This document shows positions 299 to 20,950 of a stretch of DNA of 29,595 nucleotides, piece by piece. Origin of the DNA: a virus (Duplodnaviria; Heunggongvirae; Uroviricota; Caudoviricetes); the IMG/VR virus record IMGVR_UViG_2558860274_000007; one strand, given 5' to 3'. The notes beneath the pieces were generated by a model that worked only from the letters and a program-made list of their open reading frames with translations, was not told the origin of the DNA and searched no databases. Position numbers and translations under genes: made by a program. How positions within the stretch are numbered: the stretch's first letter is position 1; each line of letters starts with the position of its first letter.

Positions 299-1462
299 TT
301 ACTCATCACCTTCTGTTTCGTACTCCACATCAGAAAGCCTGACCTCAAGCTCTAAGGACGTCGTGAAGCCGCTATTATTGAGAAAATGTGCCACCTTAGT
401 GATTGTCCAGTCCTGCTCGTCTATGACGCGCTTAAAGCCTGATACTTTGACCGGCGTTTCCGTGTAAATATCTGCCCGACCAGTAGCCAGACTGATGGAG
501 AACTCCGCAACGCCCCGTTGCAGCTTATCCCACTTCGCCTGAGCGGCGCGCATGGCCTGCGCTTTCGTGGCATATACCGTGGTCAGGGCAAAAACGTTGT
601 CAGCCTCACCTGCCATGTATTCACCTTCGCGCGCTTCCGGTACTTTTGGCGCTTTCTTCTGCGTGACTGGTTTCGCTTTCGGGTGCTCCAGTGCGCGCAG
701 GTGTTTCTCTTTCTTTTTGCGTTTCAGTTTTACCTTCTGCTTTTGCGGCTTCGGGTCTTTGGTGTGTAACCACTTTGCCGTTACGCCGGTGTAAGCTCCA
801 CGGTCAGCAATCGCAAAATGATGACGGTCGCCGTCGCTGCGGGTGATGGTAATCTGCGGGATTTTTTTACCACTGGCCGTCACCCCCTGCCCCGCTTTGA
901 GAAACAACAGTTTTCCCATTTTTACAGAGACCTCACCGCCGTTGCGTTCTGCAAGACGGGTCAGGAATTTCGCATCAGACTCCTGCGACTGGTCGATGTG
1001 CGGGATTTTAATTCCGGCCAGTGACGGAGCGACACTGGCTTCCAGTCTGTTACGGGAGGCTATCGCCTCAACAATCGCACCGAGCGTGGTGTCATGCCAG
1101 GAGCCTTCACGGCGGGAATTGAGCGTCCCGCGGAAATCTGCACTCCGGGCGCGGATGGTGACCACATCCGGCGCGCCCCGGTGTTCAACCTCATCAACGG
1201 TGAATTTCCCTTTGCATACCAGGGCAAAACCTTTCCAGCCGATATACACCGTCAGGACAGCGCCACGAACCGGCAGCCCGACCTGCCCGTCGGCATCGTT
1301 CAGTTCAATATCAAGCTGGTCAGCCTCAAAGCCCCGGTTATCCGTCAGGGTCATGCTCATCAGACGGTCGCTGATATTGCCGGTAATATCCCTGCTGTCG
1401 AGCATCAGCATGTAATCCGGCGTCAGCGTACTGCCTGCATCAAATGTCAGCGCGTCCAGCAT
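299..1462 (-). CDS. D: Tail protein D (late gene D), 387 aa
   Basis: Start chosen at MLDALTFDAGST (ATG at 1462), giving the P2 gpD length of 387 aa. The track ORF extends to 1600 only because it runs into the inserted P-gene fragment. Confidence 0.88.
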   Translation of the reverse strand: MLDALTFDAGSTLTPDYMLMLDSRDITGNISDRLMSMTLTDNRGFEADQLDIELNDADGQVGLPVRGAVLTVYIGWKGFALVCKGKFTVDEVEHRGAPDVVTIRARSADFRGTLNSRREGSWHDTTLGAIVEAIASRNRLEASVAPSLAGIKIPHIDQSQESDAKFLTRLAERNGGEVSVKMGKLLFLKAGQGVTASGKKIPQITITRSDGDRHHFAIADRGAYTGVTAKWLHTKDPKPQKQKVKLKRKKKEKHLRALEHPKAKPVTQKKAPKVPEAREGEYMAGEADNVFALTTVYATKAQAMRAAQAKWDKLQRGVAEFSISLATGRADIYTETPVKVSGFKRVIDEQDWTITKVAHFLNNSGFTTSLELEVRLSDVEYETEGDE

Positions 1463-1489
1463 TATCCCGCCCCCGTCATACCCGTGAAT

Positions 1490-1619
1490 GAAAACCGCAA
1501 TGGTGCTCAAGGCAAAAGACGTTATTCGCCGTGGCTGTCTGGAATATGACGTCAGCGCCACCGACATCACCAGCTCGTTTATGGCTATCCGCAAGACCAT
1601 GACCAGCAGCGGACGCAGT
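1490..1619. repeat. Diverged ~130-bp direct copy of an internal segment of terminase gene P, inserted between U and D
   Basis: 1490-1619 matches 18153-18284 in the same orientation with a few mismatches (ctcaag/cttaag, attcgcc/atccgcc, tatgac/tacgac). Flanking sequence on both sides is unrelated. Confidence 0.8.
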
Positions 1620-2070
1620 TAGTCGCCATACTGCCAGCCTTACCGATGAGCGATTCCGCCTGTTTACCGATATCGCCATAAAGCGCGGCCAGTGATTCAT
1701 CAACGCGGGTGAGCGACAACGTAAAATCAATTTTCCGGGGTGTGCCGTCTGCAAAGAAAATACTCCCTGTTTCACTCACCCTGCTGATGACATACATGCC
1801 GTAAATCATGCCGGTGCCATCCAGCAACGGCCACGCCCGGCCTTCCTCTGCCATCAGCCTGAGCGTGGTCATCGTCAGCTTCCCGCCGGTCAGTTCGGGA
1901 TAAAGCACGCCGGCAAGCGTCATGTTTTCCTCACCCACACCGAGAAACTGAAAGGCATCCCGTTTACCGATACGGGAATTTGACGGCCAGCGATAATCTG
2001 ATTCGCGCTGCATGGTCTGGTGTGGCAGCGTCTGGCGCATAAAAACAAACATACCTAACGCGAGCATCAT
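1585..2070 (-). CDS. U: Tail protein U, with the C-terminal 11 residues encoded by the inserted P-fragment copy
   Basis: MMLALGMFVFMRQTLPHQTMQRESDYRWPSNSRIGKRDAF... is P2 gpU-like through ...GKAGSMAT; the tail NCVRCWSWSCG is read from the repeat at 1585-1620. Confidence 0.85.
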   Translation of the reverse strand: MMLALGMFVFMRQTLPHQTMQRESDYRWPSNSRIGKRDAFQFLGVGEENMTLAGVLYPELTGGKLTMTTLRLMAEEGRAWPLLDGTGMIYGMYVISRVSETGSIFFADGTPRKIDFTLSLTRVDESLAALYGDIGKQAESLIGKAGSMATNCVRCWSWSCG

Positions 2071-2084
2071 TTTTCGTCACCTCC

Positions 2085-4532
2085 TTAACCGTCATGCATC
2101 ATGCTGGCACGGGCGCGCGCACGTTTATCCCGCTCGTATTTTTCGAGCGCATCCTGTAACTGGCGGTCAAGCTGTGTCCCCGGCGCAGTACCACCGGTCA
2201 GGCTGATGTGATATTCGTTTTTACTCTGGTCCACATAAGAGCGGCCAGCCGGTGCCGTGACCGGCTGATAAGCCTGATAGCCTGCATAAGAGCTGGTCGC
2301 CGGAATATAACCACCGGTGCCATACGTGGCGGCATTAGTCCTTGCGGCGGTCTGGTCAAGTGTGTCTGACTCTTTGTTGATGACACCGAGTTTTTCCAGT
2401 ACCCAGTCAATACCACTGCGCAGTTTGTTGAACGCATTAAGCGGCAGCATCAACGCGTCAGCCAGTGCCTGCCCGAACATGACACCCGTGTCACGGCAAC
2501 GGTTCAGGGTGTCCTGGGTGGCTTTGACCGGGGCAATCAGGTTTTTAAACCACTGCCACGCGGCCTGTAACTTTTCGCCCAGCCAGTCAAACACCGGCTT
2601 AAGTGGCGTGAACAGTTCCCCCACCGGCGCAAATGCCGCTTTCAGCCCTTCCACCACACCGCCAAAGAATGCGCTGACAGGCTCCCAGTATTTACGAATA
2701 AGCAACGCCCCGGCGACAATGGCGGCCACCACGGCAACAACCGGCCAGCTAATCGCCCCGATGGCCGTCATAACAGCACTGCCAACCGTCGTGAAGATTG
2801 CCCCCATTGCGCCTGCTGCCGCGATGATGGCATTGATGCCGGTGATAACCGGCCAGGCTACGAGGCCAATGGCACCGATGACGCCAGTCAGCGCCAGTGC
2901 GCCACCGACAATGAGGCCGATGGTTGACGCCAGTGATTTGTTTTTCTGGATCCAGCCGTCGAGTTTTAACACATACTTTGTGGCCGTCTGTGTGAGCTTA
3001 CGCAGTGCGCCTTCCTGCTGGTCAAACAGGTCAGTCCCCACCGCCTCATAAGCGGACTGAAACTCCTTAAAGTCACCGCCGAGGTTATCCTGCATGATTT
3101 TAACCAGCTCTTCCGTTTTACCGTCCGAGGCTTTCAGCGTGGCGGTCAGCGTATCCAGTTTTCCGCTTGCTGCCGCTGCCAGTAAAACGTTCGCTGATTT
3201 CAGGGCTTCCTCACCAAAAATGGTTTTAAGGTATTCCCCCTTCTGAGACGTTCCCAGCTTGTGTTTATCAAAGCTGGCCTGAATCTCTTTCAGAATGGTG
3301 AACAACGGGCGCATATTTCCCTTTTTGTCCGAGGTTTTAACGCCAAGCTCTTTGAGTGCATCCCATGCTTTCCCTGTCGGAGCCTGTAATCGGGTGACAA
3401 CGGCACTGCTACCCGTACCCGCCATTGACCCCCTGATGTTATTGTCATGCAGCACACCTGTCATGGCTGCTGCCTGCTCAAGACTTACACCTGCCGTCTT
3501 CGCAACCGGGCCGAGATAAGTCAGTGCATCACTGAGTCCCTGAAAATCAGCCGCCGACTTATTCATCGTTGCCGACAACACGTCGCCCACATGACTGACA
3601 TCATCATTTGACAGTTGAAAGGATGCCTTAGTCCCCAGCAACAGTTGCGCGTTTTCTTCCATCGACCGCTGATTCGCCAGTGCCATATTCAGCGTGACCG
3701 GCGTTGCCGCCTGAATAGCCGCAGCATCTCCACCGGCTTTCGCAATGATAATCTGTGCACCGGCTGCATCATCCGCCGAGGCGGCAGTATTGTCACCGAG
3801 CTGGCGCGCCTGCTTGCGGAGTGCGGCCATTTCGGCGGAGTCTTTTGCCACGCCGAGCACGGCCTGCAATTCTGAGTTTTTCTGCGCAAACTCATAACCG
3901 GGCATCAGCAACTTAACACCGGCCATCGTTCCCGCCGCCGCAATCCCCACACCGGCAGCGCCCACTGAGGCCATAGTTCCGGCCAGTTCCTTTCCGGCCT
4001 GATAACGCTGTTTTACTGCGTTAAGTTTTGCCTGTTGCGCACTGACACGCGCCAGCGCGTCACGCTGCCGGTTAAGCTGCGCGGTGGTTTCACTGATACG
4101 GTTTTTCAGCCCCTGCTCATCATGTGCAAGATTGCGGGTATTAATTCCCACAGCAGCCAGTTCCCGCTGCTGGCGTTTAACGGAATCCGTCAGGCGGTTA
4201 TATTTCGCCTGTAAGTCCTCCGCTGCTCGCTTTGCGGATTCCAGCACTTTCGCCTGAGCACGGGTCGGACGCTCGGTGTTTTTAAACTGTGTGGCAAGGG
4301 CTTCGGCCTCCTGCCGTGCCTTTTCAAGTGCATGACCAGTCACGGCGAGCTGTGCACTGGTCTTGCGGAATCCCTCAATACGGGATGCCTGACCGTTCAG
4401 CTCGCGCAGTGATTTTTGTGTTTCCCGGATATCCCCCGACAGCGACTTACTCGCTGTGCGGATGGATTTAAACGGGCGGGATGCCTGGTCAACAGCCCTG
4501 AGCAATACCTGTAATTTTACATTGTTACTCAT
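2085..4532 (-). CDS. T: Tail tape measure protein T, 815 aa
   Basis: 815-aa ORF (the P2 gpT length), coiled-coil-rich N-terminal half and Gly/Ala-rich hydrophobic middle; sits between E/E' and U as in P2. Confidence 0.92.
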   Translation of the reverse strand: MSNNVKLQVLLRAVDQASRPFKSIRTASKSLSGDIRETQKSLRELNGQASRIEGFRKTSAQLAVTGHALEKARQEAEALATQFKNTERPTRAQAKVLESAKRAAEDLQAKYNRLTDSVKRQQRELAAVGINTRNLAHDEQGLKNRISETTAQLNRQRDALARVSAQQAKLNAVKQRYQAGKELAGTMASVGAAGVGIAAAGTMAGVKLLMPGYEFAQKNSELQAVLGVAKDSAEMAALRKQARQLGDNTAASADDAAGAQIIIAKAGGDAAAIQAATPVTLNMALANQRSMEENAQLLLGTKASFQLSNDDVSHVGDVLSATMNKSAADFQGLSDALTYLGPVAKTAGVSLEQAAAMTGVLHDNNIRGSMAGTGSSAVVTRLQAPTGKAWDALKELGVKTSDKKGNMRPLFTILKEIQASFDKHKLGTSQKGEYLKTIFGEEALKSANVLLAAAASGKLDTLTATLKASDGKTEELVKIMQDNLGGDFKEFQSAYEAVGTDLFDQQEGALRKLTQTATKYVLKLDGWIQKNKSLASTIGLIVGGALALTGVIGAIGLVAWPVITGINAIIAAAGAMGAIFTTVGSAVMTAIGAISWPVVAVVAAIVAGALLIRKYWEPVSAFFGGVVEGLKAAFAPVGELFTPLKPVFDWLGEKLQAAWQWFKNLIAPVKATQDTLNRCRDTGVMFGQALADALMLPLNAFNKLRSGIDWVLEKLGVINKESDTLDQTAARTNAATYGTGGYIPATSSYAGYQAYQPVTAPAGRSYVDQSKNEYHISLTGGTAPGTQLDRQLQDALEKYERDKRARARASMMHDG

Positions 4533-4952
4533 TCGTGTTTCCGCTTCGCCGGAGCGCCTTTTCGCGCCATGTGATGAGTTCGGTCAGGCTCATGGGATAC
4601 AGTTCTGATGGCGGCCAGTGAAATATCACTGCCACATCTGCCATCAGGTCATCGACCGACAGATTTTTCGGAAACGTCACTGCACCGAGTTCGGCGACAA
4701 AAAACCGACCACCTTACCGGCCAGCGCCACAAGGTCAGGCAGTTCCAGCGCGGCGACCTCCTGCTCGGTCAGCATCGGTGCCGTCATGCGCGGCAGTACC
4801 TTAATCAGTGCATCGACTTCGGAGTTTGCAACCGCAGCCAGACTGACACCGCGCAGCGTCCCGGCATTGGGTTTCATCAGCGTGACCTGTTCGATAACCT
4901 GCTCACCACGCTTGACCGGATTGTCCAGGGTAATCACATTTTCTTTGTTCAT
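4525..4952 (-). CDS. E+E': E+E' tail assembly chaperone fusion made by programmed -1 frameshift, predicted 142 aa
   Basis: Slippery TTTTTTG on the minus strand at 4698-4704, six codons before the E stop. Reading in the -1 frame from there gives a 57-codon extension ending at TAA 4525-4527, which overlaps the T start codon. 85 + 57 = 142 aa, the size I recall for P2 E+E'. Confidence 0.7.
4677..4952 (-). CDS. E: Tail assembly chaperone E, 91 aa
   Basis: 91-aa ORF MNKENVITLDNPVKRGEQVIEQ... directly upstream of T, the P2 gpE position and size. Confidence 0.9.
   Translation of the reverse strand: MNKENVITLDNPVKRGEQVIEQVTLMKPNAGTLRGVSLAAVANSEVDALIKVLPRMTAPMLTEQEVAALELPDLVALAGKVVGFLSPNSVQ
4698..4704 (-). 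other. Slippery heptamer TTTTTTG for the E/E' -1 frameshift
   Basis: Read directly from the sequence; codons GGT TTT TTG of E (G-F-L) on the minus strand. Confidence 0.65.
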
Positions 4953-5008
4953 GGTTTTCTCACTTCTGAATCGGGGTTAACCGGTCAGCCAGGCTGACCG
5001 GATGAAAA

Positions 5009-5527
5009 TCACAGGCCGATATTGCGGCGGTGTTGCTCCAGCCGGTCGACGCCGTTCACCTTCTCAATCATGTTGATGGTGTCGATTTCGACCAGCTCCT
5101 TACCGTCCATCGTCAGCCGGAAATAGGTGCAGACCACGGAGATTTTCGACTCGGTGTCTTCTCCCTGTTTGCCCTCGCCGGTGTCGATTTCTTTCTGACG
5201 TCCACGCATGACCACTTCGACGGCCACCGTTTCGCCGGTATCGTCACGCTGGTAAGAGCCTGCAAAACGAATCGGCACAGCATCCACACCGGTTGCGGCG
5301 TAAAGCTCCCAGATAACCGAATCCGGGAAGCCACCGAGCGACCACTCCATTGACAGCGCATCGTCATCAAGGCCGAGGTCTACCGGTGCGCTGCCGTTCA
5401 TCCCCGCACCGCGATAGTTTTCGAGCTTACGGGTCAGTTTTGGCAGCGTGACGGACTTTGCAACGCCCTGATAGCTGTAGCCGTTCAGAAAGACGTTCAT
5501 TAACTTGAGTTTGCGCGGCATTGCCAT
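5009..5527 (-). CDS. FII: Tail tube protein FII, 172 aa
   Basis: 172-aa ORF immediately downstream of FI; size and position match P2 gpFII. Confidence 0.92.
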   Translation of the reverse strand: MAMPRKLKLMNVFLNGYSYQGVAKSVTLPKLTRKLENYRGAGMNGSAPVDLGLDDDALSMEWSLGGFPDSVIWELYAATGVDAVPIRFAGSYQRDDTGETVAVEVVMRGRQKEIDTGEGKQGEDTESKISVVCTYFRLTMDGKELVEIDTINMIEKVNGVDRLEQHRRNIGL

Positions 5528-5539
5528 CGGTCAGGCTCC

Positions 5540-6730
5540 TTAATTGCTGTTAACCGAAGTGACCAGATTTGCCAGGTATTTATCGGTAATGCGCTGGCGC
5601 AGGGTCAGATTTTCAAGAGGAGGCACCGGGGTATAGTCGTAGTCGATATACAGTTTTCCGGCCTTGAGGGTTTCCGCATCGTTGGACTCTTCGCTGAACC
5701 AGCAGGTCGCATCCACGATATAGCCGTTTGTTTTCAGCTCACGGAATTTGGCATTGATGCCGTCAACGATGTCGCGAATCAGCGTTGCGGTGATGGGCTT
5801 GTCCACCGCCCACATGTGCGCCTCAGCCATCGTGTCGGCCAGCACCTGCGCGGTGCGGGTGTAGTTTTCAAAGAGGAACAGCGGATCATCAGAGCAGGTA
5901 CGGTTACCCCAGAAGCGGAAACCGTCACGGCGAATCAGCGTTGTGATGCCTGACTCGTTAAGCAGGTCAGCATCGGTGCCGGACTCCTGCAAATCCCAGA
6001 ATACGGACGCGCTGATGCCGGTAACACCGTTCACCCCGACGTTGGACAGCGTTTTATGCCAGCCCTGCTCCTGGTCGATTTTAGCGCGCAGACCCAGCGC
6101 ACGGGCGGTGGCATACGCGGTGGCGGTGGTACTGGCGACCGTATCCCATGCGAGGAAATCCGGCCAGATGACCATCAGCTCACGCTGGCTGAAATTCTGG
6201 CGGTAGGCTTTCACCTCGGAAATGGTTTTACAGCCCCATGCGCTGATATACCCGAAAGCGCGCAGCTTCTGACAGACTGATGCCAGTGCAACAGCCACCT
6301 CTTTGGTGTCCAGTCCCGGCACGCCGAGAATACGCGGTTTAACACCGGTTACCGACTCTGCCGCCAGCAGGGCCTTCAGTCCGGTGTACTGACCGTTTTC
6401 GTCAGTGGTGCCGATGATATTGGAAACGGTCTGCGCGAGTTTCGTTTCTTCGTCTTCGCCGGTGCCGTCTTCCACACGTACGACAACGGTGACCGGTTTT
6501 GACTGGTCGGCGATAGCCTGCAACGACGCCGCCAGCGTGCCTTTTTTACCGGCCTTTGCAATTGCACTCTGCACATTGGTAATCAGCACCGGTTTATTGA
6601 GGGGGAAGATTTCCGCATCCGCATCGCTGGCCGTGCAGACCATGCCAACAATGGCGGTGGATACGGTGGAAATGACGCGGGTGCCGTCGTTAATCTCCAG
6701 CACCTGCACGCCGTGATGATAGTCACTCAT
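5540..6730 (-). CDS. FI: Contractile tail sheath protein FI, 396 aa
   Basis: 396-aa ORF MSDYHHGVQVLEINDGTRVISTVSTAIVGMV...; GGAG ribosome-binding site about 8 nt upstream of the ATG. Confidence 0.93.
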   Translation of the reverse strand: MSDYHHGVQVLEINDGTRVISTVSTAIVGMVCTASDADAEIFPLNKPVLITNVQSAIAKAGKKGTLAASLQAIADQSKPVTVVVRVEDGTGEDEETKLAQTVSNIIGTTDENGQYTGLKALLAAESVTGVKPRILGVPGLDTKEVAVALASVCQKLRAFGYISAWGCKTISEVKAYRQNFSQRELMVIWPDFLAWDTVASTTATAYATARALGLRAKIDQEQGWHKTLSNVGVNGVTGISASVFWDLQESGTDADLLNESGITTLIRRDGFRFWGNRTCSDDPLFLFENYTRTAQVLADTMAEAHMWAVDKPITATLIRDIVDGINAKFRELKTNGYIVDATCWFSEESNDAETLKAGKLYIDYDYTPVPPLENLTLRQRITDKYLANLVTSVNSN

Positions 6731-6825
6731 CCGTTTAACTCCGTGGTTAATGGGTGCAACTATTTTCTGTTGGGCAGTGCATGAGACGCTATTTGACCTG
6801 GCTGGTCAGTGGATGAAACAACAGA

Positions 6826-6856
6826 TAAAGAAAAGGCAGGCAATTCGCCCGCCTGT
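6826..6856 (-). terminator. Putative intrinsic terminator for the cargo gene at 7050-7949
   Basis: On the minus strand: 8-bp stem AGGCGGGC/GCCTGCCT (one G-U wobble), 5-nt loop, then TTTTCTTTATCT. Confidence 0.4.
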
Positions 6857-7049
6857 CCTGATTTGTACTCACTCATTTTCCGACTGACAATTTACATAGC
6901 CAAAACGCTATCAAATCTGACAGTCTGCTTTGAGCGAGGAGCAGAGGTTAGTTTTAGTTAACCAAAATGATAAAAAGCAGTAGAAAAATCCGCTCATTAC
7001 GTTATGGTTATAAGCCGCACATAATCATCCGAGCCAAATCCTCTTGATT

Positions 7050-7949
7050 TCAAAGAATTAGCACTTGCTCTTCACTAGAAACTATGGTTCTGACTTCACG
7101 CTCAAATGTTGGATCCATTATCATTTTTCTATTTGTTGGAATAGTAAATTTACCGAGTACCATGACAATGCTACTCAACGGAAATAATTTTGGAGTAACA
7201 TTTCCTAATTGAATCGTAGGATATATATTAAAGCCCCCTTTTATCCTCATTGGCGAACCTTCAATGAAGTGTCGATAATTAAATTTCGCCATAGGGATTC
7301 TCGCCACATGCACTTTCATAATTACAGCAACCTGAGCTATTTTTACTTTCTGGAGGTAAGTTGACAATCGTTCTAACTGCGTTGTTTCATAGAAAAAATC
7401 AGACCACGTTACAGTACTTGTTCCAGTAACAATTTTTATGCTGTTTCTCTTGTTGGGGTGAGCTTTTCCATATTCATAGATCTCCCGTAAGCTATCCATG
7501 TTCTTCACATAGGGGGCTTTCCGACCTCTCTTGACATAAACGCGGTCTGTAGTATCAGAAGGTGGATTTGCCTGCATAGCTGCAGCTTTTCTGCTTAATT
7601 TAGAGATATCATCTTCATCGAGTATATGTATACGGAATATATTATTACCTGTGGCAAGCGCACGGCTGATATCATGACTGGAATCACTTGCATAAATTGT
7701 ATTCAATCCTGAAGTTCCATACTGACATAATTTGTCATGCGTGAAATTTTTTTCCAGTCTAAAGAAGGCGGGGATATGCAAGGTTTTATTAAAACTCCGA
7801 CGAATATGGCTTTTGACATACACCAAATGAGCAGAGCAATTTGGGTCAGGACATTTGAGTGGATAGGGATTAACACTATAATTAAAAGTATTTACATTTA
7901 CTAAAATCTGATTGTTATCAATAGCCTGAGTTATACGAATACCACTCAT
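7050..7949 (-). CDS. Hypothetical 299-aa protein of unknown function at the Z/fun-equivalent position (between FI and G); candidate accessory or defence gene
   Basis: Long ORF that is clearly AT-rich compared with the flanking tail genes. GGAGGAG ribosome-binding site a few nt before the ATG. N-terminal Cys/His cluster (C-PDPN-C...H...H...C). No family recognised by eye. Confidence 0.75.
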   Translation of the reverse strand: MSGIRITQAIDNNQILVNVNTFNYSVNPYPLKCPDPNCSAHLVYVKSHIRRSFNKTLHIPAFFRLEKNFTHDKLCQYGTSGLNTIYASDSSHDISRALATGNNIFRIHILDEDDISKLSRKAAAMQANPPSDTTDRVYVKRGRKAPYVKNMDSLREIYEYGKAHPNKRNSIKIVTGTSTVTWSDFFYETTQLERLSTYLQKVKIAQVAVIMKVHVARIPMAKFNYRHFIEGSPMRIKGGFNIYPTIQLGNVTPKLFPLSSIVMVLGKFTIPTNRKMIMDPTFEREVRTIVSSEEQVLIL

Positions 7950-8088
7950 TACTCCTCCATAAAGATAGGCGCAAGCATTTAGTAATAAACCATTAACATG
8001 CCGAGATCATACCCGATCATTGAAATGTAAACACTCCCCTAAGACGGCTGCTGGCATAATATTTTATGACATCAGCAATGCCCACCTC

Positions 8089-8130
8089 TGGCACAGAGTG
8101 GACTGTCAGATTAGGCTTTACTCTGTGCCA
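8089..8130. repeat. Inverted repeat with 11-bp arms (TGGCACAGAGT / ACTCTGTGCCA) and a ~20-nt spacer, between G and the cargo gene
   Basis: Perfect arms read from the sequence. No adjacent T-run on either strand, so not a canonical terminator. Confidence 0.3.
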
Positions 8131-8164
8131 TAGATATGTAAGCCCACACTAGAGCTCATACAAC

Positions 8165-8692
8165 TTATTGCGGCATTTCCGGCCATTCAGGATTTGCAGG
8201 ATCCACACGGCTGACCAGAACGCTGTAGCGTTCCCATGACTCCAGTCGTGCACGTTCCTCATCCGTCGCCATATTCAGCCTGACAGCGCGTTCCAGTGGC
8301 TGAATAACGCTTTCCGCTTCGGAAAGTAACGCGGCCTTTTGTGATTCTGCCTGTTGTTGCTGTTCATCTGCCGTATAAATCCGTTTAACCACAGCACCAT
8401 CCTTAAACATCCATTTACCTGAGTCGTCAGCACGTCGATTGGAGGTAATATCAGGAACCTCAACAACGCTAAAACCTTCAGGATTAAGCGTTGAAGCATC
8501 TCTGGTGATGGCGACAATAATATTATTTTCATCGTAAACAATCTTTATTGTGTCTGGCTGAAAGTTCTTCACTTCCTCATACCAGTTTTTTCCGTCTTCG
8601 GACCATAACCAGATAACATCAAAATTCTTTGTTAGCTGATATTGTTCTTTTGTTTTTGGATTACCTGACTTAATGTTCTTTAAATGCTGCAT
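8165..8692 (-). CDS. G: Tail fiber assembly protein G, 175 aa
   Basis: 175-aa ORF immediately downstream of H. The 5' part is noticeably more AT-rich than the 3' part, as expected for a mosaic host-range module. Confidence 0.9.
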
Positions 8693-8695
8693 AAC

Positions 8696-10705
8696 TTACA
8701 CCTGCGCAACGTTATACCATGTGCCATTGATGTACTTTTGTATCGGCCTGAAGATGGCTTCATCATCGCCATCTACTTCACCAATGATTCTTAATCCGGT
8801 AATCGTGTGTCCGGCTTTTTCATAACGACCACCTCGCGCCATCAATTGAACAACTCGCGTACCCAGGCGAACATCTTTCACATAGCGGGAATCAAAATTC
8901 CCCCAGTTGCTGGGTTGCATCTGACCATTAACAGCAAATATTACCGAGTTATCTGTATTTCGCTGGCTATAGAAATGCCATCCGGACTCATCGCCTAACT
9001 CTGCAACCACTGGACGGTTGGAAGCACCCCATAAATTAAAGGTAATATTCTTCGTGGATGTGTTAGAGCTGGATAGCGAGAACTTTTTACTATCCCCTAC
9101 CTGAATATTTTTAAAAGCAATAGCCACTCCATTCTGAAAACGGAATACACGCTGACTGTTAGCATAAACATCAAGAATACCGTCTCCATTCTGTTTAAAT
9201 CCGGTATCATTATCACCAAGGACAATAGAGCTACCACCTAGTGCATTCGTCGTACCAACTCCAAGACAGCCATTAATGACGGCATTAACAAGAATATTTA
9301 GTGCATCCCATTTCAGCGTCATCAGGTCTTTTGTTGTGGTACTCTGGCGGCTTCTCCATTTGAAATATTCATTGCCGTTATCCCCCGTTTCAAACCACAT
9401 GTATGAATCAGCGTCACCATCGGCATCATTTTTAAATCCAATCTTCGCCCATTCAGTATTTCGAATCCAGGCAAGGATTGAGTCGTTTTCAAAAGTAATC
9501 CCGCCGGACAAGATATCGCCATTCTTTTGCACCGCGTTCCTGGCCCTGTTTACCGTTTCCAGCAAACCGAGATATTCGATAACGGCGGCAACGGTCGATT
9601 TAGCCAGAATATCCCGCCCGACTTTTGTCAGGGTCGCCAGGCTGGCAACATCATTCCCCGTAAAATACGGAAACCTGTCTGCCGCAGTAGCAAGCCCCGC
9701 CAGCGCCGTCAAAGTGGCATCTTTCGGTTGCTTACTCGCAAGCGCATTAGTCATGGTGGTAGCAAAATTCGGGTCATTGCCCAGCGCCGCCGCCAGCTCG
9801 TTCAGCGTATTCAGTGCGTCAGGCGACGAGTCTACAAGGGCGGCAATCGCGGCCATAACGAAAGCCGTGTTTGCGATCTGAGTATTATTCGTTCCCTGTC
9901 GCGCAGTTGGCGTCGTTGGCGTTCCGGTCAGTGCAGGGCTGTTTAATGGCGCTTTCTTGTTCGTTTCATCCATTACCGTCTTAACGGCTTTTGGTGTTGC
10001 GGCGAGCGTTTCAGACGTGCTGTTAGTCGCACTACTGAGCTGAACAAGGCCTTTTCGCGCGGTGGTGGCGTCCTGTGCGGTATATTTCCCGTTAGCAAGG
10101 TCATATGCGGCCTTAACCGCTTTCGGCGTTGCGGCCAGTGTTTCAGACGTGCTGTTGGTCGCACTGCTTAACTGAGTAAAACCTTTGGCGGTCAGCGAGG
10201 CGTCCGGGTGACGTCGTGACTGTTCATGTTCTGCAATTTTGTCATCAACGTAATCCTGCGTTGCCATCACCGTTGTGGTGTCAATGGTCAGCGCCACTGA
10301 GGCCACACTGCTGACGATGATGACCATGCGGCAGGTCTGCGAACGCCCTGAGCCTTCGGCAAGAGCTGGCTTATAACTTTCAGCCATGTTCGCCACGGCA
10401 ATTAACGTTCCAGCATCATCGTACAGGCCAAGCTCACGCATCCAGAAACCGCCCACCTCCGGCGGAATAACCAGCTCTGCGATAATATAATTACTGTTTC
10501 GTTTGTCCTGGCTGATTTTATTCAGCGCATGTCGCCAGACTTCATGGATAAGCCCGGTCTGTCCGGCATCCGGGACAGGCAATTTACCACCGCCATCCCC
10601 GACGGCCATCGTGGTAATGTTGACCTTCCGCCCTCCCGGTGCGGTTGCTGCTGCCAGCTTTGCTGCACCGGCAGTGGTGATAACGGTTCTGAATTTTGTG
10701 CTCAT
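8696..10705 (-). CDS. H: Tail fiber protein H, 669 aa
   Basis: 669-aa ORF (the P2 gpH length) with a conserved N-terminus MSTKFRTVITTAGAAKLAAATAPGG... and an internal tandem repeat of the motif LSSATNSTSETLAATPKAVK. Confidence 0.93.
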   Translation of the reverse strand: MSTKFRTVITTAGAAKLAAATAPGGRKVNITTMAVGDGGGKLPVPDAGQTGLIHEVWRHALNKISQDKRNSNYIIAELVIPPEVGGFWMRELGLYDDAGTLIAVANMAESYKPALAEGSGRSQTCRMVIIVSSVASVALTIDTTTVMATQDYVDDKIAEHEQSRRHPDASLTAKGFTQLSSATNSTSETLAATPKAVKAAYDLANGKYTAQDATTARKGLVQLSSATNSTSETLAATPKAVKTVMDETNKKAPLNSPALTGTPTTPTARQGTNNTQIANTAFVMAAIAALVDSSPDALNTLNELAAALGNDPNFATTMTNALASKQPKDATLTALAGLATAADRFPYFTGNDVASLATLTKVGRDILAKSTVAAVIEYLGLLETVNRARNAVQKNGDILSGGITFENDSILAWIRNTEWAKIGFKNDADGDADSYMWFETGDNGNEYFKWRSRQSTTTKDLMTLKWDALNILVNAVINGCLGVGTTNALGGSSIVLGDNDTGFKQNGDGILDVYANSQRVFRFQNGVAIAFKNIQVGDSKKFSLSSSNTSTKNITFNLWGASNRPVVAELGDESGWHFYSQRNTDNSVIFAVNGQMQPSNWGNFDSRYVKDVRLGTRVVQLMARGGRYEKAGHTITGLRIIGEVDGDDEAIFRPIQKYINGTWYNVAQV

Positions 10706-10715
10706 TATTCCTCAC

Positions 10716-11246
10716 TTATCCGGGGTAAACCGTAATTACATCGCCGTCGTAAGCCACACCACCGGCGAACAGATAGCCGGGAATGTCCCGGGTAATGTTC
10801 AGGCCAATAAGGTGACGGCTTGCAGGTTTGGCATCAGCAATCAGCCGTTCCATTTCCTGATACATTGCCTCTGTGATGCCGCTTTCCAGTACACCAATAT
10901 CAAGCCGGAAGGTGCCGGGCGGGTCACTGTTTTCCCACCACTCCGTCACGTTAATGAGATAGCCGAGCGGCTCCACCACACGCCGGATTGCGCCTATAGT
11001 GCCTTTATGACAGTGGATGAAATAGGCATCGCGGATAACGGCGCGTTTTGTCGCTTCCGGCCACTTTTCATCCCACCTGTCGACCGAAAACGCCCACGCC
11101 AGCCACGGCAGCAGATTTGCCGGGCAGGTGTCCGGGTTCCACAGCTCACGAATACTGACCGGCGTTTTTTCAATTTCCGCACAGGCTTTTGCGGCAGCAA
11201 TTTCAAGCGGTGATGAGCCGGTCGGCAGCAGGCGCGAATCACTCAT
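10716..11246 (-). CDS. I: Baseplate protein I, 176 aa
   Basis: 176-aa ORF between J and H, the P2 gpI position and size. Confidence 0.9.
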   Translation of the reverse strand: MSDSRLLPTGSSPLEIAAAKACAEIEKTPVSIRELWNPDTCPANLLPWLAWAFSVDRWDEKWPEATKRAVIRDAYFIHCHKGTIGAIRRVVEPLGYLINVTEWWENSDPPGTFRLDIGVLESGITEAMYQEMERLIADAKPASRHLIGLNITRDIPGYLFAGGVAYDGDVITVYPG

Positions 11247-12147
11247 CCGAGCCTCCGGTCACGACGCGGTATTCGGTACAGAAAGACGCCTGCGTACTGT
11301 TGAGCACAATGTCGGCCAGCGGTGCAGCCAGTTCGACACGCTGCACGCCTTCCACATGCAAAGCGGCATAAATGGCAGACAGACGGATGTCGCGCCCCAG
11401 CCGGTGCTGTGCCGTGATGTACGCTTCCAGTTTTTTCACGGCAGCAGCGCGGATGGGTTCGCTTTCGGGACCAGGGTAAAGGTAAAGCGTGGCGTTTATC
11501 TGGTATTCAACGATGGCGGCAGACTGCACGGTCACGCGGTCGGCCACCGGCCTGACGTCCTCGCCATTAAGGGCGTTACGCACCACCGCCAGCAGGTCTT
11601 CGGATGCGACACCGTTATTTTCACGTGACAGCACAGAGATGGTGACGCAGGCCGGAGACGGACTGGTGACAGAGATATCCGCGACACGCCCGTCGGCACT
11701 GCGACCATGATACTGATAGGCTCCCACTGACCCGGCGACGCTTAAACCTTCAAACGCCTGCTGAATACGCAGACGATAATCGGTGTCAGATTCCATCACT
11801 GCCGGTGTCGGCGGGATAGTCGAATCATCTGCCGGGGTGATAGTCAGGCGCGTGGTGTTGTAATTGGCACCAATCACATCAAGGTCATTACCGGCGGCAC
11901 AGGCCAGCATCACCGCCCGTGCGGCCTCATTCACACGCTGACGCCAGATAAGCTCACGATAAGCATTTTCTTCCAGCAGTTTGACGAGAGGCTCAGATTC
12001 CAGTGTCAGGGTACGGGCGACCGCCTCCTGCTGGTCTTCCGGGTAAAGGGAAATCAGTGTCGCCTTGCGTTCGGCGAGAATGGTTTCAAAGTCCAGCTCC
12101 TCGACCACATCCGGTGCGGGTAGCTGGTTCAGGTCGATAATCGGCAT
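11239..12147 (-). CDS. J: Baseplate wedge protein J, 302 aa
   Basis: 302-aa ORF MPIIDLNQLPAPDVVEELDFETILAERKA...; P2 gpJ size and position. Confidence 0.93.
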   Translation of the reverse strand: MPIIDLNQLPAPDVVEELDFETILAERKATLISLYPEDQQEAVARTLTLESEPLVKLLEENAYRELIWRQRVNEAARAVMLACAAGNDLDVIGANYNTTRLTITPADDSTIPPTPAVMESDTDYRLRIQQAFEGLSVAGSVGAYQYHGRSADGRVADISVTSPSPACVTISVLSRENNGVASEDLLAVVRNALNGEDVRPVADRVTVQSAAIVEYQINATLYLYPGPESEPIRAAAVKKLEAYITAQHRLGRDIRLSAIYAALHVEGVQRVELAAPLADIVLNSTQASFCTEYRVVTGGSDE

Positions 12148-12151
12148 GGTT

Positions 12152-12499
12152 TCAACTCACAGGGATGGTTAACGAAAGTGGCTGGCCGGTGTCGTTGTGC
12201 TGACCGGTTAACGTGACCGTCATTCGCCCGTCAAAACTGCGCGCCGTGGTGACGGATGACAGGGTGACGCGGGGTTCCCATTTCAGCACTGCCATGTAAC
12301 AGGCGACCTTAATCTGCAACTCAAGCGCCGGGGTCTGCGGCTGGTCAATCATTGACGCCAGCAACGAGCCGTAATCACGACGCATCACCCGTGAGCCGAC
12401 GGGGGTACGCAGGATATCGCCGATACTCTGGCTGATATGCTCAAGGTCAGTGACAGTCAGGCCATCACTGCGATTCATTCCGAGATAACGCGCAGTCAT
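12152..12499 (-). CDS. W: Baseplate protein W (gp25-like), 115 aa
   Basis: 115-aa ORF between V and J. Confidence 0.9.
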   Translation of the reverse strand: MTARYLGMNRSDGLTVTDLEHISQSIGDILRTPVGSRVMRRDYGSLLASMIDQPQTPALELQIKVACYMAVLKWEPRVTLSSVTTARSFDGRMTVTLTGQHNDTGQPLSLTIPVS

Positions 12500-13131
12500 A
12501 GAGGTCCCCCGGTTGTGCCGCCGCTGTCGCCGGGGTGTTTATGGGTATGCAGTACCTTACCGTTTGATGAGAGCTCACCGCCGGTGTGTTCAATGTTGCC
12601 GCGCATCGTCCCGCCCTTCTGCACTTCCAGCGTGCCGGTAATCAGCCTGTTGGTGCAGACCACCTCCGGTGTGTCCAGGGTGATGCGGGTTGATGCTTTC
12701 ACCATGACCACCGGCACCGTGGCAGTAACAGAATCAGAAGCCGTCACGCTGGCCGTTTTAACTCCGCTTACCGTGAGCGCGCTGGTTTCAGGTTCATACT
12801 CAATCACCGCCCCGTCAGGGAAACGGATATGCAGGGCATCCGCCGACGCAGACGGCGCGGGGTTATCGCCGGAATAAATCCCCGGCAGAACGAACGCCGT
12901 GTCGAGTTCACCACCCACGGCCAGAATCAGCACCTGTTCCCCCACGGAAGGTGCCCACCATGTGCGCGAACGCCCGGCGCGATGGGTCAGCCACTGAAGC
13001 CAGTCGGTGCACATGCCGCCGGTCTGCACACGGCAGCGACCGGCATTAAGGTCGGTTTCGACGATAATGCCGGTGCGGATCATGTTGCGCAGTGCGCGCG
13101 CGAGTTCCTGAATATTTGCGAGAGTGTTCAT
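12496..13131 (-). CDS. V: Baseplate spike/hub protein V, 211 aa
   Basis: Start chosen at the ATG for MNTLANIQELARALRNMIRTG (13131). The track ORF begins six codons earlier at a TTG. Confidence 0.88.
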   Translation of the reverse strand: MNTLANIQELARALRNMIRTGIIVETDLNAGRCRVQTGGMCTDWLQWLTHRAGRSRTWWAPSVGEQVLILAVGGELDTAFVLPGIYSGDNPAPSASADALHIRFPDGAVIEYEPETSALTVSGVKTASVTASDSVTATVPVVMVKASTRITLDTPEVVCTNRLITGTLEVQKGGTMRGNIEHTGGELSSNGKVLHTHKHPGDSGGTTGGPL

Positions 13132-13214
13132 GCGTGTGAGATTGCACAATATATAAAAGTTATGCTATCTGGATTCATTTGTAGAACGACCATACAACAT
13201 TCGAGGAGAGCGTA

Positions 13215-14000
13215 ATGTTCAGTGATAATGTGACTAATGCGTGGTGGTTTATCTCTTTGTATCTATTTTTATTAATAGCATTAACATTTGTTACCTTTGG
13301 TAAAAGTAATCTTATGAGGTTTATTGCACATCATTTCAATCTTGAGTATTCAGACAGAAAGTTAAAAATGCTCGACAAAAAATGGCGCGACATTCAACTA
13401 TTTAAAATAATTAACGGAATCAATGTATCAGGCATCGAAGATGTGAGAATGATACAGCAGGGGCTGATTGATGGAAAACTAAAAACATCGTATTTTTTCC
13501 TTACTCGCTTCTGGGGTGACATAACAAAACCACCACACATAATTAAAACAACAATTGTAATTCTGGCCAGTATTATTTATATTCTCTTCGCATGTTATAT
13601 ACACAATGAACAATCCGCTATAGTAAGGGATGCCATAGGTATACCATATAAAAATATGATGTACTATGTTTATAGTGACAAAGTTCTTTTATCCTTCAAA
13701 AATAAAACGGTTGAATTTAATAAAACTTATAGCCTTGCCGATTGCAAGAGTCTGCAAAACGTATTTATAAAAGACACACTTCCCGAGATCGCCTGCAATA
13801 AGCTCTTACAGCTAAACAAGGAGGACTCCGAATGGTTAAGTCAGGAGATTAAAGATAATAACAGTCACAAAAAAGCATTATTAATACTATCCCTCGTCTA
13901 TTTCACTTCAGGTCTGGTTATATTCCTGTCATATACAAAATTCTTTTACGCCAATAAGAAGGTTTTAGAATACAAAGCATCAAATAAAAATCACTCATAA
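13215..14000 (+). CDS. Hypothetical 261-aa membrane protein with three predicted transmembrane helices, inserted between V and S in the opposite orientation; candidate moron (superinfection exclusion or abortive infection)
   Basis: Very AT-rich ORF with a GAGGAG ribosome-binding site 6 nt before the ATG. Hydrophobic segments AWWFISLYLFLLIALTFVTF, IIKTTIVILASIIYILFACYI and ALLILSLVYFTSGLVIFLSY. A hairpin terminator follows directly. Confidence 0.75.
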   Translation: MFSDNVTNAWWFISLYLFLLIALTFVTFGKSNLMRFIAHHFNLEYSDRKLKMLDKKWRDIQLFKIINGINVSGIEDVRMIQQGLIDGKLKTSYFFLTRFWGDITKPPHIIKTTIVILASIIYILFACYIHNEQSAIVRDAIGIPYKNMMYYVYSDKVLLSFKNKTVEFNKTYSLADCKSLQNVFIKDTLPEIACNKLLQLNKEDSEWLSQEIKDNNSHKKALLILSLVYFTSGLVIFLSYTKFFYANKKVLEYKASNKNHS

Positions 14001-14007
14001 ACCTCTA

Positions 14008-14045
14008 AACATTGAGCGACCAGCATGGCCGCTCAATGTTTAATT
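14008..14045. terminator. Hairpin terminator between the convergent cargo gene and S
   Basis: Perfect 11-bp stem AACATTGAGCG / CGCTCAATGTT with an 11-nt loop, followed by TTTAATT on the plus strand. Confidence 0.6.
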
Positions 14046-14071
14046 GCGCATCAGCCTCTGCCTGGATAAAA

Positions 14072-14524
14072 CTAACGCTCAAGGTGAGCCAGGATAATCT
14101 CTTCAATCATCTGCACATCCTCACCGGTAAAACCGAGCAGAGGACGCGCCGGATAATCAATTTTCTTACCGTCTTTCCGGTTTTCTTCCGACAGGCCGAA
14201 CTGATGCACACTGGCGATTTTCGGTGACTTCCCGCCGTAAAATTCCATTGATGCCTGCTCCGGGCTGGCGCGGATATGCAAAAAACGACTGGTGATAAGT
14301 TTCGCAAACATTTTTCGCTTAACTCGACCGGTCTTTTTTCTGGCGCTCTGCTGTTGGCGTGGTGCGTAGGGTGTGCCGTCCGGGGCTTTCTGTGCCATCA
14401 CCCGACGCTGCTGACTCTGCCGCAGGCGCTTCGCCAGTTCGGCACTCAGTCGCCGACGCCCTGACGGTGACAGCGATTCAGTCAGTCCGGTCAGCCGGTC
14501 TTCAAAACGCTTAAACTCATTCAT
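14072..14524 (-). CDS. S: Tail completion protein S, 150 aa
   Basis: 150-aa ORF MNEFKRFEDRLTGLTESL...; P2 gpS size and position downstream of R. Confidence 0.92.
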   Translation of the reverse strand: MNEFKRFEDRLTGLTESLSPSGRRRLSAELAKRLRQSQQRRVMAQKAPDGTPYAPRQQQSARKKTGRVKRKMFAKLITSRFLHIRASPEQASMEFYGGKSPKIASVHQFGLSEENRKDGKKIDYPARPLLGFTGEDVQMIEEIILAHLER

Positions 14525-14984
14525 CCCACTTGCTCACCAGTTCGCCATTGATATAAAGCTCCATCGGGCGGTTGACCGGCTCCGGCGGCGGGGGTTCCGG
14601 GATATTCTTCACATGCAGTGCGCCGTCCACCTCACTGACCAGCGTGCGCTCGGTCAGCATCAGGCTGATGCTGATATCAAAGCTGCTGTCATTGTTGATG
14701 TCTGCATAAAACGTGAAGCCCTTTTTCTGGCCTTCGTCGGTGGTCATGATGTCGGGCTGATTTTCCCGCAGCCACGCCAGTACCGGCACGATGAGCAGGT
14801 CAAAATCACCGGTAAAGTCGGCCACAATGACATTGAGCGTGTAACGCTTTTCGAATGACAGCGACGTCGCCAGTGTGGAGGCAATACTCCCGTTATCCAC
14901 GAATATCCGCAGCATCTCGGGGCTGGTTTTCAGCACCGTGACGGCATCAGTCAGCGCCCTGCGCAGGCTGTCGGGTTTGAGCAT
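14517..14984 (-). CDS. R: Tail completion protein R, 155 aa
   Basis: 155-aa ORF MLKPDSLRRALTDAVTVLK...; P2 gpR size and position. Confidence 0.92.
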   Translation of the reverse strand: MLKPDSLRRALTDAVTVLKTSPEMLRIFVDNGSIASTLATSLSFEKRYTLNVIVADFTGDFDLLIVPVLAWLRENQPDIMTTDEGQKKGFTFYADINNDSSFDISISLMLTERTLVSEVDGALHVKNIPEPPPPEPVNRPMELYINGELVSKWDE

Positions 14985-19645: not shown

Positions 19646-19872
19646 CGCCCGCTTCATGGGTCGGTTTTGATGCAATTCCAAAAGCCGTCCAAACTCTCTT
19701 AGGCTAAATGTCCAACGAGAAAATAGTGCTTTGAATGTGAATGCATTTTAATGCAGAGTTATGCCCAGCATTTTTGTACACTTCGATGTATCAAATGCGC
19801 TGCAAACGATCAAATATGGATGTTTTATCAAGCATCCCCCAAAAGATATTTACATCATCCCATGAGGTTAAG

Positions 19873-20946
19873 ATGGATAACAAAATCGTAGAAATTGAGA
19901 CAAATAAGCTTGATTTTGACCCTAAAAACCCACGTTTCTTTCGTCTCAATGATGCCAGTAACGCTGCAACAGTCATTGAGGAAATGTTAGATGACGAAAG
20001 TGTCCACGATCTAATGCTATCAATCGGTCAGCAAGGTTACTTTCCTGGAGAACCTTTATTGGCAGTAAAAAGCAATGGAAACTACATCGTGGTTGAGGGA
20101 AACAGACGCTTAGCTGCTGTAAAGTTGCTCAATGGAGATCTGCTTCCTCCAAAAAGAAAACTTAAAGGTGTGCAAGAAATCATTGATGATACTACCAATA
20201 AACCTAAGAAGCTTCCCTGCATCATTTATGAAAACCGAGAGGATGTACTGAGATATATCGGTTATCGTCATATAACTGGGGTCAAAGAATGGGACTCATT
20301 ATCTAAAGCCAAATACCTTAAAGAGTTATGTGATACTTTTTATTCACATGAACCTAAAGAGATAGTATTAAAAAATCTGGCTCGTGAGATTGGGAGTAAA
20401 CCACATTATGTTGCAACACTTCTCACTGCACTGAACTTATATGAAGTCGCGCATGACCATGAGTTTTTTAATTTACCCATGAAGGCTTCTGACGTGGAAT
20501 TTTCATATATAACCACAGCTTTGGGATATTCAAAAATCACAAACTGGTTAGGTCTACAGGATAAAAAGGATTTTTTAGACCCAAATTTAAATGAAGAAAA
20601 CCTTAAGCGTTTATTCTCTTGGTTTTTTGTGCCTGACCAACAAGGTAGAACCATCATCGGTGAGTCTCGAAGAATAAAAGATATTGCAGCAGTGGTTGAG
20701 AAACCCGAAGCAATTGAAATTCTCATGAAAAGTTCAAACTTGGATGAAGCATATCTATATACCAGCGGAGAAAGAGAAGCATTAGATAAAGCACTAAACG
20801 CAGCTAGTGTTAAATTAAGAGTAGTTTGGGATATGCTACTTAAAGCTAAAGAATTAACATTAGAGCATGAAGAGGCTGCATCTGAAATTTTTGAGATGTC
20901 AAAAAATATTAGAAATCAGATCAGAAGCAAAAGGGAGGATGATTGA
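19873..20946 (+). CDS. ParB-like (ParB/Srx-fold N-terminal domain) protein, 357 aa; first gene of the cargo cassette after cos
   Basis: Start chosen at the ATG for MDNKIVEIE, with GAGG 5 nt upstream. ParB-like motifs DFDPKNPRF and YIVVEGNRRLAAVKLL. AT-rich. The track ORF starts 44 codons earlier with no ribosome-binding site. Confidence 0.72.
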   Translation: MDNKIVEIETNKLDFDPKNPRFFRLNDASNAATVIEEMLDDESVHDLMLSIGQQGYFPGEPLLAVKSNGNYIVVEGNRRLAAVKLLNGDLLPPKRKLKGVQEIIDDTTNKPKKLPCIIYENREDVLRYIGYRHITGVKEWDSLSKAKYLKELCDTFYSHEPKEIVLKNLAREIGSKPHYVATLLTALNLYEVAHDHEFFNLPMKASDVEFSYITTALGYSKITNWLGLQDKKDFLDPNLNEENLKRLFSWFFVPDQQGRTIIGESRRIKDIAAVVEKPEAIEILMKSSNLDEAYLYTSGEREALDKALNAASVKLRVVWDMLLKAKELTLEHEEAASEIFEMSKNIRNQIRSKREDD

Positions 20947-20950
20947 GATT

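Follow-up and report, generated by a model that had tools for sequence, protein, structure and literature searches.

Between the tail sheath gene FI and the tail-fibre assembly gene G of Escherichia phage Wphi lies a single gene, orf44, whose product, gp44, is annotated without a function. We have analysed this gene in the IMG/VR virus record IMGVR_UViG_2558860274_000007, a stretch of 29,595 nucleotides (nt) that is called the window here and to which all phage positions refer. orf44 is a self-contained cargo ('moron') gene, exchanged horizontally, in the Z/fun hotspot of P2-like phages, and its product belongs to a family that is undescribed and is absent from Pfam and PADLOC. We consider the chances about even that it is an anti-phage or exclusion factor.

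Positions 6700-8200 of the window are 100% identical by BLAST to the Wphi record AY135739.1. There, 7050-7949 is annotated as orf44/gp44 (RefSeq WP_000014362.1, 'hypothetical protein'), between FI (5540-6730) and G (Caudo_TAP, 8165-8692), and all three genes are on the minus strand. P2 carries fun(Z) in the equivalent slot, and its record describes a non-essential lysogenic-conversion gene that blocks T5. An earlier reading made from the letters alone (the sequence-only reading) had placed the gene at the Z/fun-equivalent position, in agreement with both the Wphi annotation and the P2 slot. It was also right in describing a single AT-rich gene with its own ribosome-binding site: the GC content of orf44 is 37.1% (0.32 at third codon positions, GC3) against 56.6% for FI (GC3 0.69) and 50.4% for the whole window, and a GGAGGA Shine-Dalgarno sequence precedes the start codon (Table 1). 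Its composition sets the gene apart from the tail cluster as foreign. The purine-rich block of its Shine-Dalgarno sequence is kept upstream of the orthologues. The ratio of nonsynonymous to synonymous substitution rates (dN/dS) is 0.07-0.22 among six orthologues (65-88% protein identity), and orf44 is therefore a real gene under purifying selection.

The limits of the cargo were obtained from the Z-region record of P2-EC67 (AJ512685.1), in which left and right inverted repeats are annotated around an unrelated cargo. Mapped through the BLAST match, the left repeat corresponds to 8080-8192 of the window and the right repeat to 6856-6946, so that the cargo occupies approximately the 1.13 kb between them. 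An alignment with P2 shows homology on the FI side running from FI to about 6946-6950. The two repeats contain an inverted pair of 25 nt (6914-6938 and 8088-8112), 80% complementary, with a perfect 12-nt core (AATCTGACAGTC). The G-side repeat also includes a hairpin with 14-bp arms (8086-8099 and 8120-8133) where P2 has a putative V-operon terminator. In other phages BLAST finds different cargos between the same backbone flanks.

The cassette has also moved outside this phage group. An unrelated lambdoid viral contig of 43.9 kb (L024) has only 6936-8041 of the window in common with Wphi, at 86% nucleotide identity. It carries, in order, lambda-P-type replication genes, an MT-A70 methylase, DUF968, GIY-YIG, the orf44 relative, HNH_2 and lysis genes; this copy thus occupies the nin-type region of the lambdoid genome, flanked by the GIY-YIG and HNH_2 genes. 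Since nothing else is common to the two, the mobile unit is a single gene flanked by approximately 90 nt on its upstream side and 110 nt on its downstream side. A separate observation concerns the edge of the cassette. A hairpin of 8 pairs with a plus-strand T-rich tail (6924-6945) lies exactly at the FI-side junction of cargo and backbone. It is partly conserved in P2, the L024 homology stops inside it, and the hairpin is a possible marker of the hotspot's recombination junction.

Among 5426 complete E. coli genomes, 117 contain the orf44 cargo, in every case on the chromosome and with an identity of at least 99%; in 115 of them it is intact. Equally, 115 genomes contain the complete stretch from FI to G with P2-type flanks. 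An FI-to-G query matches 1674 genomes, of which 115 carry orf44, and the gene is therefore dispensable for P2-like phages. The comparison with the FI-G region of other P2-like prophages that the sequence-only reading had proposed thus finds the gene absent from most. In E. coli, orf44 appears to be confined to the Z/fun slot, with one cassette per genome at one locus save for a single split copy. This copy (strain GN03139, NZ_CP147532.1, around 4687839), to which a truncated product of 175 amino acids (aa; WP_338822120.1) probably belongs, suggests disruption by insertion. The only sequenced phages found with the gene are Wphi, Yersinia phage HQ103 and one 'Peduovirus P2' record. In its FI-G position, its variable and dispensable nature and its enclosure by backbone inverted repeats, orf44 has the properties of a cargo of the Z/fun hotspot.

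The gene had been called an orphan. This holds for its annotation and fails for its phylogeny. The sole family match of gp44 is PHROG 7195 ('unknown function', E 6e-218), and searches of Pfam, NCBIfam and PADLOC (the last at E up to 10) returned no family. A word-indexed search recovered 12 clusters at 65% identity or more, all from Enterobacterales and all 'hypothetical', and an exhaustive profile search recovered 151 representative clusters, including 48 at E 1e-10 or better. Nearly all relatives are 295-330 aa long; distant members match mostly over residues 1-200. Named sources are Serratia, Morganella, Proteus, Leclercia, Kushneria, Vreelandella, Billgrantia, Limnobacter and Paraburkholderia, and in taxonomic terms the family covers several gammaproteobacterial genera and, with Paraburkholderia, at least one of the Betaproteobacteria. 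There are also matches on plasmids of Vibrio, Pseudoalteromonas, Klebsiella grimontii and Bacillus, with a full-length coding sequence (CDS) confirmed only for the Pseudoalteromonas and K. grimontii records. A pattern scan of genome contigs derived from the close alignment gave no confirmed relative. Pfam and NCBIfam scans of 132 relatives produced scattered single matches only. A PADLOC REase_II match in one relative (P0082, E 1e-5) was dropped, since no other family member repeated it. No informative fusion to another domain is seen among the longer relatives (P0079, P0082, P0104, P0154 and others), and P0087 looks like a gene-call fusion with NeuB/SAF.

An AlphaFold2 model of gp44 built with a 132-sequence alignment has a mean predicted local distance difference test score (pLDDT) of 92.5 and a predicted template modelling score (pTM) of 0.74; a shallow alignment of 13 sequences gave a pLDDT of only 46. 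The secondary structure of the model, read together with conservation, divides the protein into three parts, and gp44 is predicted to be soluble, basic and cytoplasmic. The family as a whole is basic (median isoelectric point, pI, 9.1), as are all three parts of gp44 itself, and no hydrophobic segment is long enough to span a membrane.

The N-terminal part resembles a zinc knuckle or ribbon. The sequence-only reading had pointed to a cluster of Cys and His residues here; the cluster is present, and the ligands conserved across 128-132 relatives can now be specified as C33 and C38 (each 96% of 128 members) and H71 and C75 (each 100%). H58 is conserved among close relatives only. The two ligand pairs (CX2-4C and HX3C) flank beta hairpins, placed by the model at residues 41-65, and this CCHC site would be expected to bind a metal. 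The alpha/beta middle part contains several near-invariant residues (R106, 91%; Y147, 95%; S/T150, 89%; W182, 99%; F185, 95%), together with aromatic residues at 186-187 and an acidic residue at 188 (D/E, 73%). Searches of PDB sequences and profiles with gp44 gave nothing usable and, with Foldseek included, no counterpart of the N-terminal 200 residues was recognised (none below E 1e-3).

The C-terminal part is modelled as a beta barrel of five to six strands that has the topology of an oligonucleotide/oligosaccharide-binding (OB) fold, a closed five-stranded barrel, and that ends in Q295 (94%). Structure matches in BFVD are to OB domains of the single-strand-binding protein (SSB) or aminoacyl-tRNA synthetase (aaRS) type. 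The strand pattern suggests that they fall at residues 204-299, as the tools do not report aligned residues. The barrel is also the most divergent part of the protein: the median pairwise identity is 17.8% compared with 24.7% for the rest, and identity to gp44 across the family is 11.9% compared with 21.7%. Divergence of this kind is typical of a recognition module that diversifies while attached to a conserved core.

Nuclease or NTPase folds had been suggested as possibilities for gp44. These found no support: the recognisable fold is the OB barrel, and no catalytic residue set is conserved. Conservation counts across the family reveal no acidic, His or Ser set sufficient for a standard hydrolase (for example, S90 is found in 77% of members, with Ala in 21%, and H108 in 30%; position 162 is acidic in 76% of relatives and is Lys in gp44). 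Pfam, NCBIfam and PDB profiles likewise gave no conserved catalytic motif or match of the PD-(D/E)xK, HNH, GIY-YIG or P-loop types. The conserved residues other than the presumed metal ligands (Arg, Tyr, Trp, Phe, Ser/Thr and Gln) have the make-up of a putative base-stacking or ligand-binding site. Sequence features of this kind point to gp44 as a probable non-catalytic binder of nucleic acid or nucleoprotein. The basic pI and the conserved Arg and aromatic residues lend indirect support to possible binding of single-stranded DNA or RNA.

The neighbourhoods of the relatives provide the link with defence. In each of the sampled loci the gene occurs singly and, since the upstream open reading frames (ORFs) in loci L003 and L014 are unrelated, a conserved partner gene is lacking. 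Approximately 9 of 16 distinct contexts have defence-type neighbours, and most contexts are on mobile elements. The Serratia fonticola relative directly follows a type I restriction-modification (RM) operon and two unknown genes, near an integrase. In Morganella morganii the gene is at the icd-side end of a lambdoid-type prophage with int/xis, beside a reverse transcriptase and an AAA_15/AAA_21 ATPase. A metagenomic island with a relative includes a TIR protein, Schlafen/AlbA_2, SymE, Fic and an insertion sequence (IS). In Billgrantia, the gene is flanked by AbiTii and a SIR2_2-nSTAND NTPase at one end and by two protein kinases with a PLD-type nuclease at the other. PglZ/GmrSD_N and a serine-recombinase module flank the Limnobacter relative, and Peptidase_U49, AbiEii and DUF6088 are close by; in Paraburkholderia the surroundings comprise IS elements, a Tn7-like element and a PIN-TPR-GreABC protein. 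Three further contexts are on mobile elements and have no defence-type neighbours: one prophage relative is between XRE/ImmA-type immunity genes and a serine recombinase, that of Leclercia is in an AlpA-type island and that of Proteus is beside bacteriocin clusters.

A homologue is also found in an integron-type array on the Vibrio tubiashii plasmid pFP31 (L029, plasmid positions 189433-207988; array at 299-14585 of the locus). Its same-strand cassettes encode a HEPN-associated protein, a 5'-nucleotidase, a GIY-YIG nuclease, AbiH, the gp44-family protein and several unknown products, and are separated by attC-like repeats of about 130 nt (TAACAAAC...GCGTTA). The gp44-family gene, apparently split into two CDS, is enclosed by repeat copies at 8862-8940 and 9908-9947 of the locus and is thus itself an integron cassette.

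Two sets of neighbours merit separate description. In the M. morganii loci (L009, L010 and L011; 9977-13370) the gp44 orthologue is separated from the integrase, which is at an attachment site next to icd, by the reverse transcriptase (RVT_1, 366 aa) and the 705-aa ATPase. These two are probably a defence pair of the retron type or of the defence-associated reverse transcriptase (DRT) type. Two otherwise unrelated contigs (L033, 3252-6866, and L034, 8001-11643) have a common module consisting of the gp44-family gene, a small ORF, DUF2924, a large serine recombinase and a 145-aa ORF, which suggests a family of serine-recombinase prophages that carries a gp44-family gene next to its integrase. 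The L033 element sits inside a BREX/AbiE island.

The P2 hotspots are known sites of defence genes. Vassallo et al. 2022 (PMC9519451) describe the fun locus as the second defence-enriched hotspot of P2, with three validated systems; the other P2 hotspot was the subject of Rousset et al. 2022 (PMC9122126). AbiH, the PD-T4/PD-lambda systems and the P2/P4 hotspot systems of Rousset et al. resemble orf44 in being short autonomous cassettes in integron or prophage hotspot slots, and differ in that gp44 has no homology to any of 5027 PADLOC models. P2 Fun(Z) is likewise a non-essential, single-gene cargo of the lysogenic-conversion type in the G-FI slot. However, it has 528 aa and is encoded on the strand opposite to the tail genes, whereas gp44 has 299 aa and is on the strand of FI and G. 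Homology between the two was rejected (hhalign with the 132-sequence profile, probability 0.2%, 12 columns aligned), as was homology to ORF1 of P2-EC67 and to P2 Tin (hhalign probability 0.1%).

Among zinc-carrying OB binders, gp44 was compared with RPA70 DBD-C, the MCM N-terminal domain and the MCM10 internal domain, and also with the anticodon-binding OB domain of class IIb aaRS. Sequence identities in these comparisons are 5-18%, and the Foldseek E-values all exceed 1e-3. In RPA, MCM and MCM10 the zinc module is inserted in or adjacent to the barrel. In gp44, by contrast, the CX2-4C...HX3C knuckle is N-terminal, and about 130 residues of unmatched alpha/beta structure precede the barrel.

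P2 Tin is reported to poison gp32, the single-strand-binding protein of T4. It is encoded at the old/tin hotspot and its record carries the annotation 'blocks growth of T-even phages'. Like gp44, it is a small single prophage protein without a recognisable enzymatic domain, and it is the closest analogy for a mechanism of binding and poisoning replication. This analogy is functional speculation and concerns logic rather than ancestry. In the mechanism that we consider most likely, gp44 would be produced from the prophage, with expression in the lysogen presumed, and would bind single-stranded nucleic acid of an incoming phage or a nucleoprotein intermediate of its replication or packaging. The bound nucleic acid or SSB-coated intermediate would be sequestered and its use blocked, so that replication would be arrested. 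The variable, rapidly diversifying OB domain would determine target specificity, and the conserved N-terminal core, with its site lined by Arg, Tyr, Trp, Phe and Gln and no solved counterpart, would carry out the arrest. That gp44 acts specifically in this way, by non-enzymatic binding as proposed for Tin, has even so a fairly low probability. It is similarly rather unlikely that gp44 represents a new class of single-protein, non-enzymatic antiviral immunity, built from a zinc knuckle and an OB fold and spread as a plug-in cassette among P2-like and lambdoid phages, serine-recombinase prophages, integrons and defence islands. The reality of the gene, the cassette limits, the family, the fold, the pattern of conservation and the neighbourhoods are established. 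For gp44, zinc binding, nucleic-acid binding, expression in the lysogen and the anti-phage phenotype itself are all properties that we infer.

Several points weigh against a role in defence. The link is a qualitative one of guilt by association, from sampled contexts without a background rate, and roughly one third of these contexts, namely those of Kushneria, Vreelandella, the K. grimontii plasmid and Pseudoalteromonas, contain no obvious defence genes. PADLOC-DB 2.0.0 gave no match for gp44 and no consistent match for 132 relatives; among the relatives, seven different models matched one member each, with a best E of 3e-4. A literature search by name, accession and sequence fragment, which took in the supplements of the DefensePredictor and Vassallo papers, found no mention of orf44, WP_000014362.1 or WP_000014361.1 in the library searched. 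The only promoter candidate is a weak consensus match. The suggested non-enzymatic mechanism depends on the absence of motifs, and a new active site in the unmatched middle domain is conceivable. The proposal of the sequence-only reading, a single-gene defence or exclusion factor suggested by position, composition and autonomy, therefore stands as regards these three properties, while the defence function itself is by association only and matches no known defence family.

It is possible, if less than likely, that gp44 is an accessory nucleic-acid binder that serves the phage or element itself, in counter-defence, as an accessory to replication or recombination, or as a regulator. The combination of an OB fold, a zinc knuckle, a basic pI and no catalytic motif would suit a binder or regulator, and hotspots also hold cargo unrelated to defence: according to the iLund4u preprint (10.1101/2024.10.15.618418), the Z/fun hotspot serves mixed purposes and shows tail-fibre swaps in addition to defence-like genes and invertases. 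Several neighbourhoods (Kushneria, Vreelandella, the K. grimontii plasmid and Pseudoalteromonas) also lack defence genes. However, other relatives occur in non-phage chromosomal defence islands and in the integron array, where a role in counter-defence or phage replication makes little sense, and orf44 is absent from most P2-like genomes. A protein of about 300 aa with a fixed architecture also exceeds typical anti-defence proteins.

The evidence of mobility might be taken to indicate a selfish gene, that is, a homing-type or site-specific DNA enzyme in which Tyr147 and Arg106 act on DNA together with the zinc and OB parts. The cassette has moved with about 100 nt of flanking sequence between unrelated phages, it sits between conserved genes as free-standing phage homing genes do, its neighbours in the lambdoid phage include GIY-YIG and HNH genes, and the Tyr and Arg are near-invariant. 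We regard this as improbable. No nuclease, recombinase or HUH family is matched, and neither an acidic nor a His-x-His set is conserved; the E. coli copies are all at one locus, one per genome except for the single split copy; the Z/fun slot holds many unrelated cargos bounded by backbone inverted repeats; and the Vibrio homologue, being bounded by attC-like repeats, was moved by the integrase and not by itself. Still more improbable, to the point that we give it very little weight, is a virion- or tail-fibre-related protein such as a chaperone or adaptor. The gene does lie inside the tail cluster, on the strand of the tail genes and next to G and H, and the iLund4u preprint reports swapping of tail-fibre and assembly genes at this hotspot. 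Yet most P2-like phages with the same FI lack it, its relatives are found in non-phage islands and integrons, and its 37% GC is foreign to the cluster. The sequence-only reading would have given up its proposal on finding clear homology to a virion protein; none was found in PHROG (7195 being of unknown function), Pfam or BFVD, and no structural family is matched.

The signals around orf44 are included in Table 1. The sequence-only reading had noted a probable terminator at 6826-6856. The stem-loop is real, at 6834-6854, but does not belong to the cargo: it is inside sequence conserved in P2 and is therefore part of the backbone. About 10 nt separate it from the downstream position to which the activator-binding site of the P2 pF promoter aligns (the P2 activator site maps to approximately 6798-6823 and the P2 transcription start to approximately 6754-6756), and it may stop read-through from orf44 or G ahead of pF. 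A weaker hairpin in the 3' flank of the cargo, in a stretch (6963-6995) conserved between Wphi and L024, is a possible terminator of the cassette itself, although the terminator scan did not pick it up. The best promoter match is outside the segment common to L024, and the orf44 promoter may therefore be nearer the gene. Rfam and tandem-repeat scans of 6650-8250 gave no match.

Table 1. Features of orf44, its product and its flanks, in window coordinates
Feature	Position	Strand	Remarks
orf44/gp44 coding sequence	7050..7949 (stop codon included)	-	ATG start, 299 aa, 34 kDa, pI 9.8
Shine-Dalgarno sequence GGAGGA	7953..7958	-	Read from the sequence, 3 bases before ATG
Putative zinc-knuckle/ribbon region, codons 29-80	7710..7865	-	Predicted ligands C33, C38, H71, C75
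Alpha/beta middle region, codons 81-203	7341..7709	-	No recognisable fold match
C-terminal OB-fold-like beta barrel, codons 204-299	7053..7340	-	Five to six strands
Cargo segment between backbone inverted repeats	6947..8079		About 1.13 kb, 37% GC
FI-side backbone inverted repeat	6856..6946		'Right inverted repeat' of P2-EC67; core AATCTGACAGTC at 6914-6925
G-side backbone inverted repeat	8080..8192		Overlaps 3' end of G
GC-rich stem-loop followed by T-run	6834..6854	-	Terminator-like scan; conserved in P2
Weak hairpin with T-rich tail, cargo 3' flank	6963..6995	-	GAGCGG-9 nt-CTGCTT, then TTTATCATTTTG; candidate terminator
Best sigma-70-like promoter match	8056..8084	-	TGGGCA-17-TATTAT, 9/12 positions, consensus scan; weak

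Other loci in Wphi are also of interest. At the old/tin position, the P2 hotspot between Q/cos and A, the window contains three genes (19741-22911). The N-terminal part of the first (401 aa) matches PADLOC PD-Lambda-5_A (E 3e-24) and PDC-M38A (E 9e-25). The second (369 aa) overlaps the first and belongs to no family, and the third, which is convergent, encodes a C5-cytosine DNA methyltransferase (PF00145, E 1e-61; PADLOC DruM2/MTase_II). From these matches the region looks like a PD-lambda-5-like or RM-like defence module. A 261-aa ORF at 13215-14000 is on the plus strand, opposite to the surrounding tail and baseplate genes, and matches no Pfam or PADLOC family. It lies at what we take to be the P2 orf30 position and may represent a third small cargo site. 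Adjoining the replication gene A, a 162-aa ORF on the minus strand (23360-23848) has ASCH/DUF3850 and DUF7415 domains.

That the Z/fun slot of P2-like prophages supplies anti-phage genes is established. Some 2% of complete E. coli genomes carry the orf44 cargo, among them the industrial strain W, a natural Wphi lysogen, and strains derived from it, and the product of the gene has remained a 'hypothetical protein' since Wphi was sequenced. What is new here is a family of about 150 clusters, a three-part structural model, a set of residues to mutate and neighbourhoods that point to defence. If the anti-phage phenotype were refuted, a non-defence cargo would be documented in a hotspot often taken to be for defence only. 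If it proves true, gp44 would represent a defence family without an enzymatic domain and provide a compact model of how an OB-fold sensor stops a phage.

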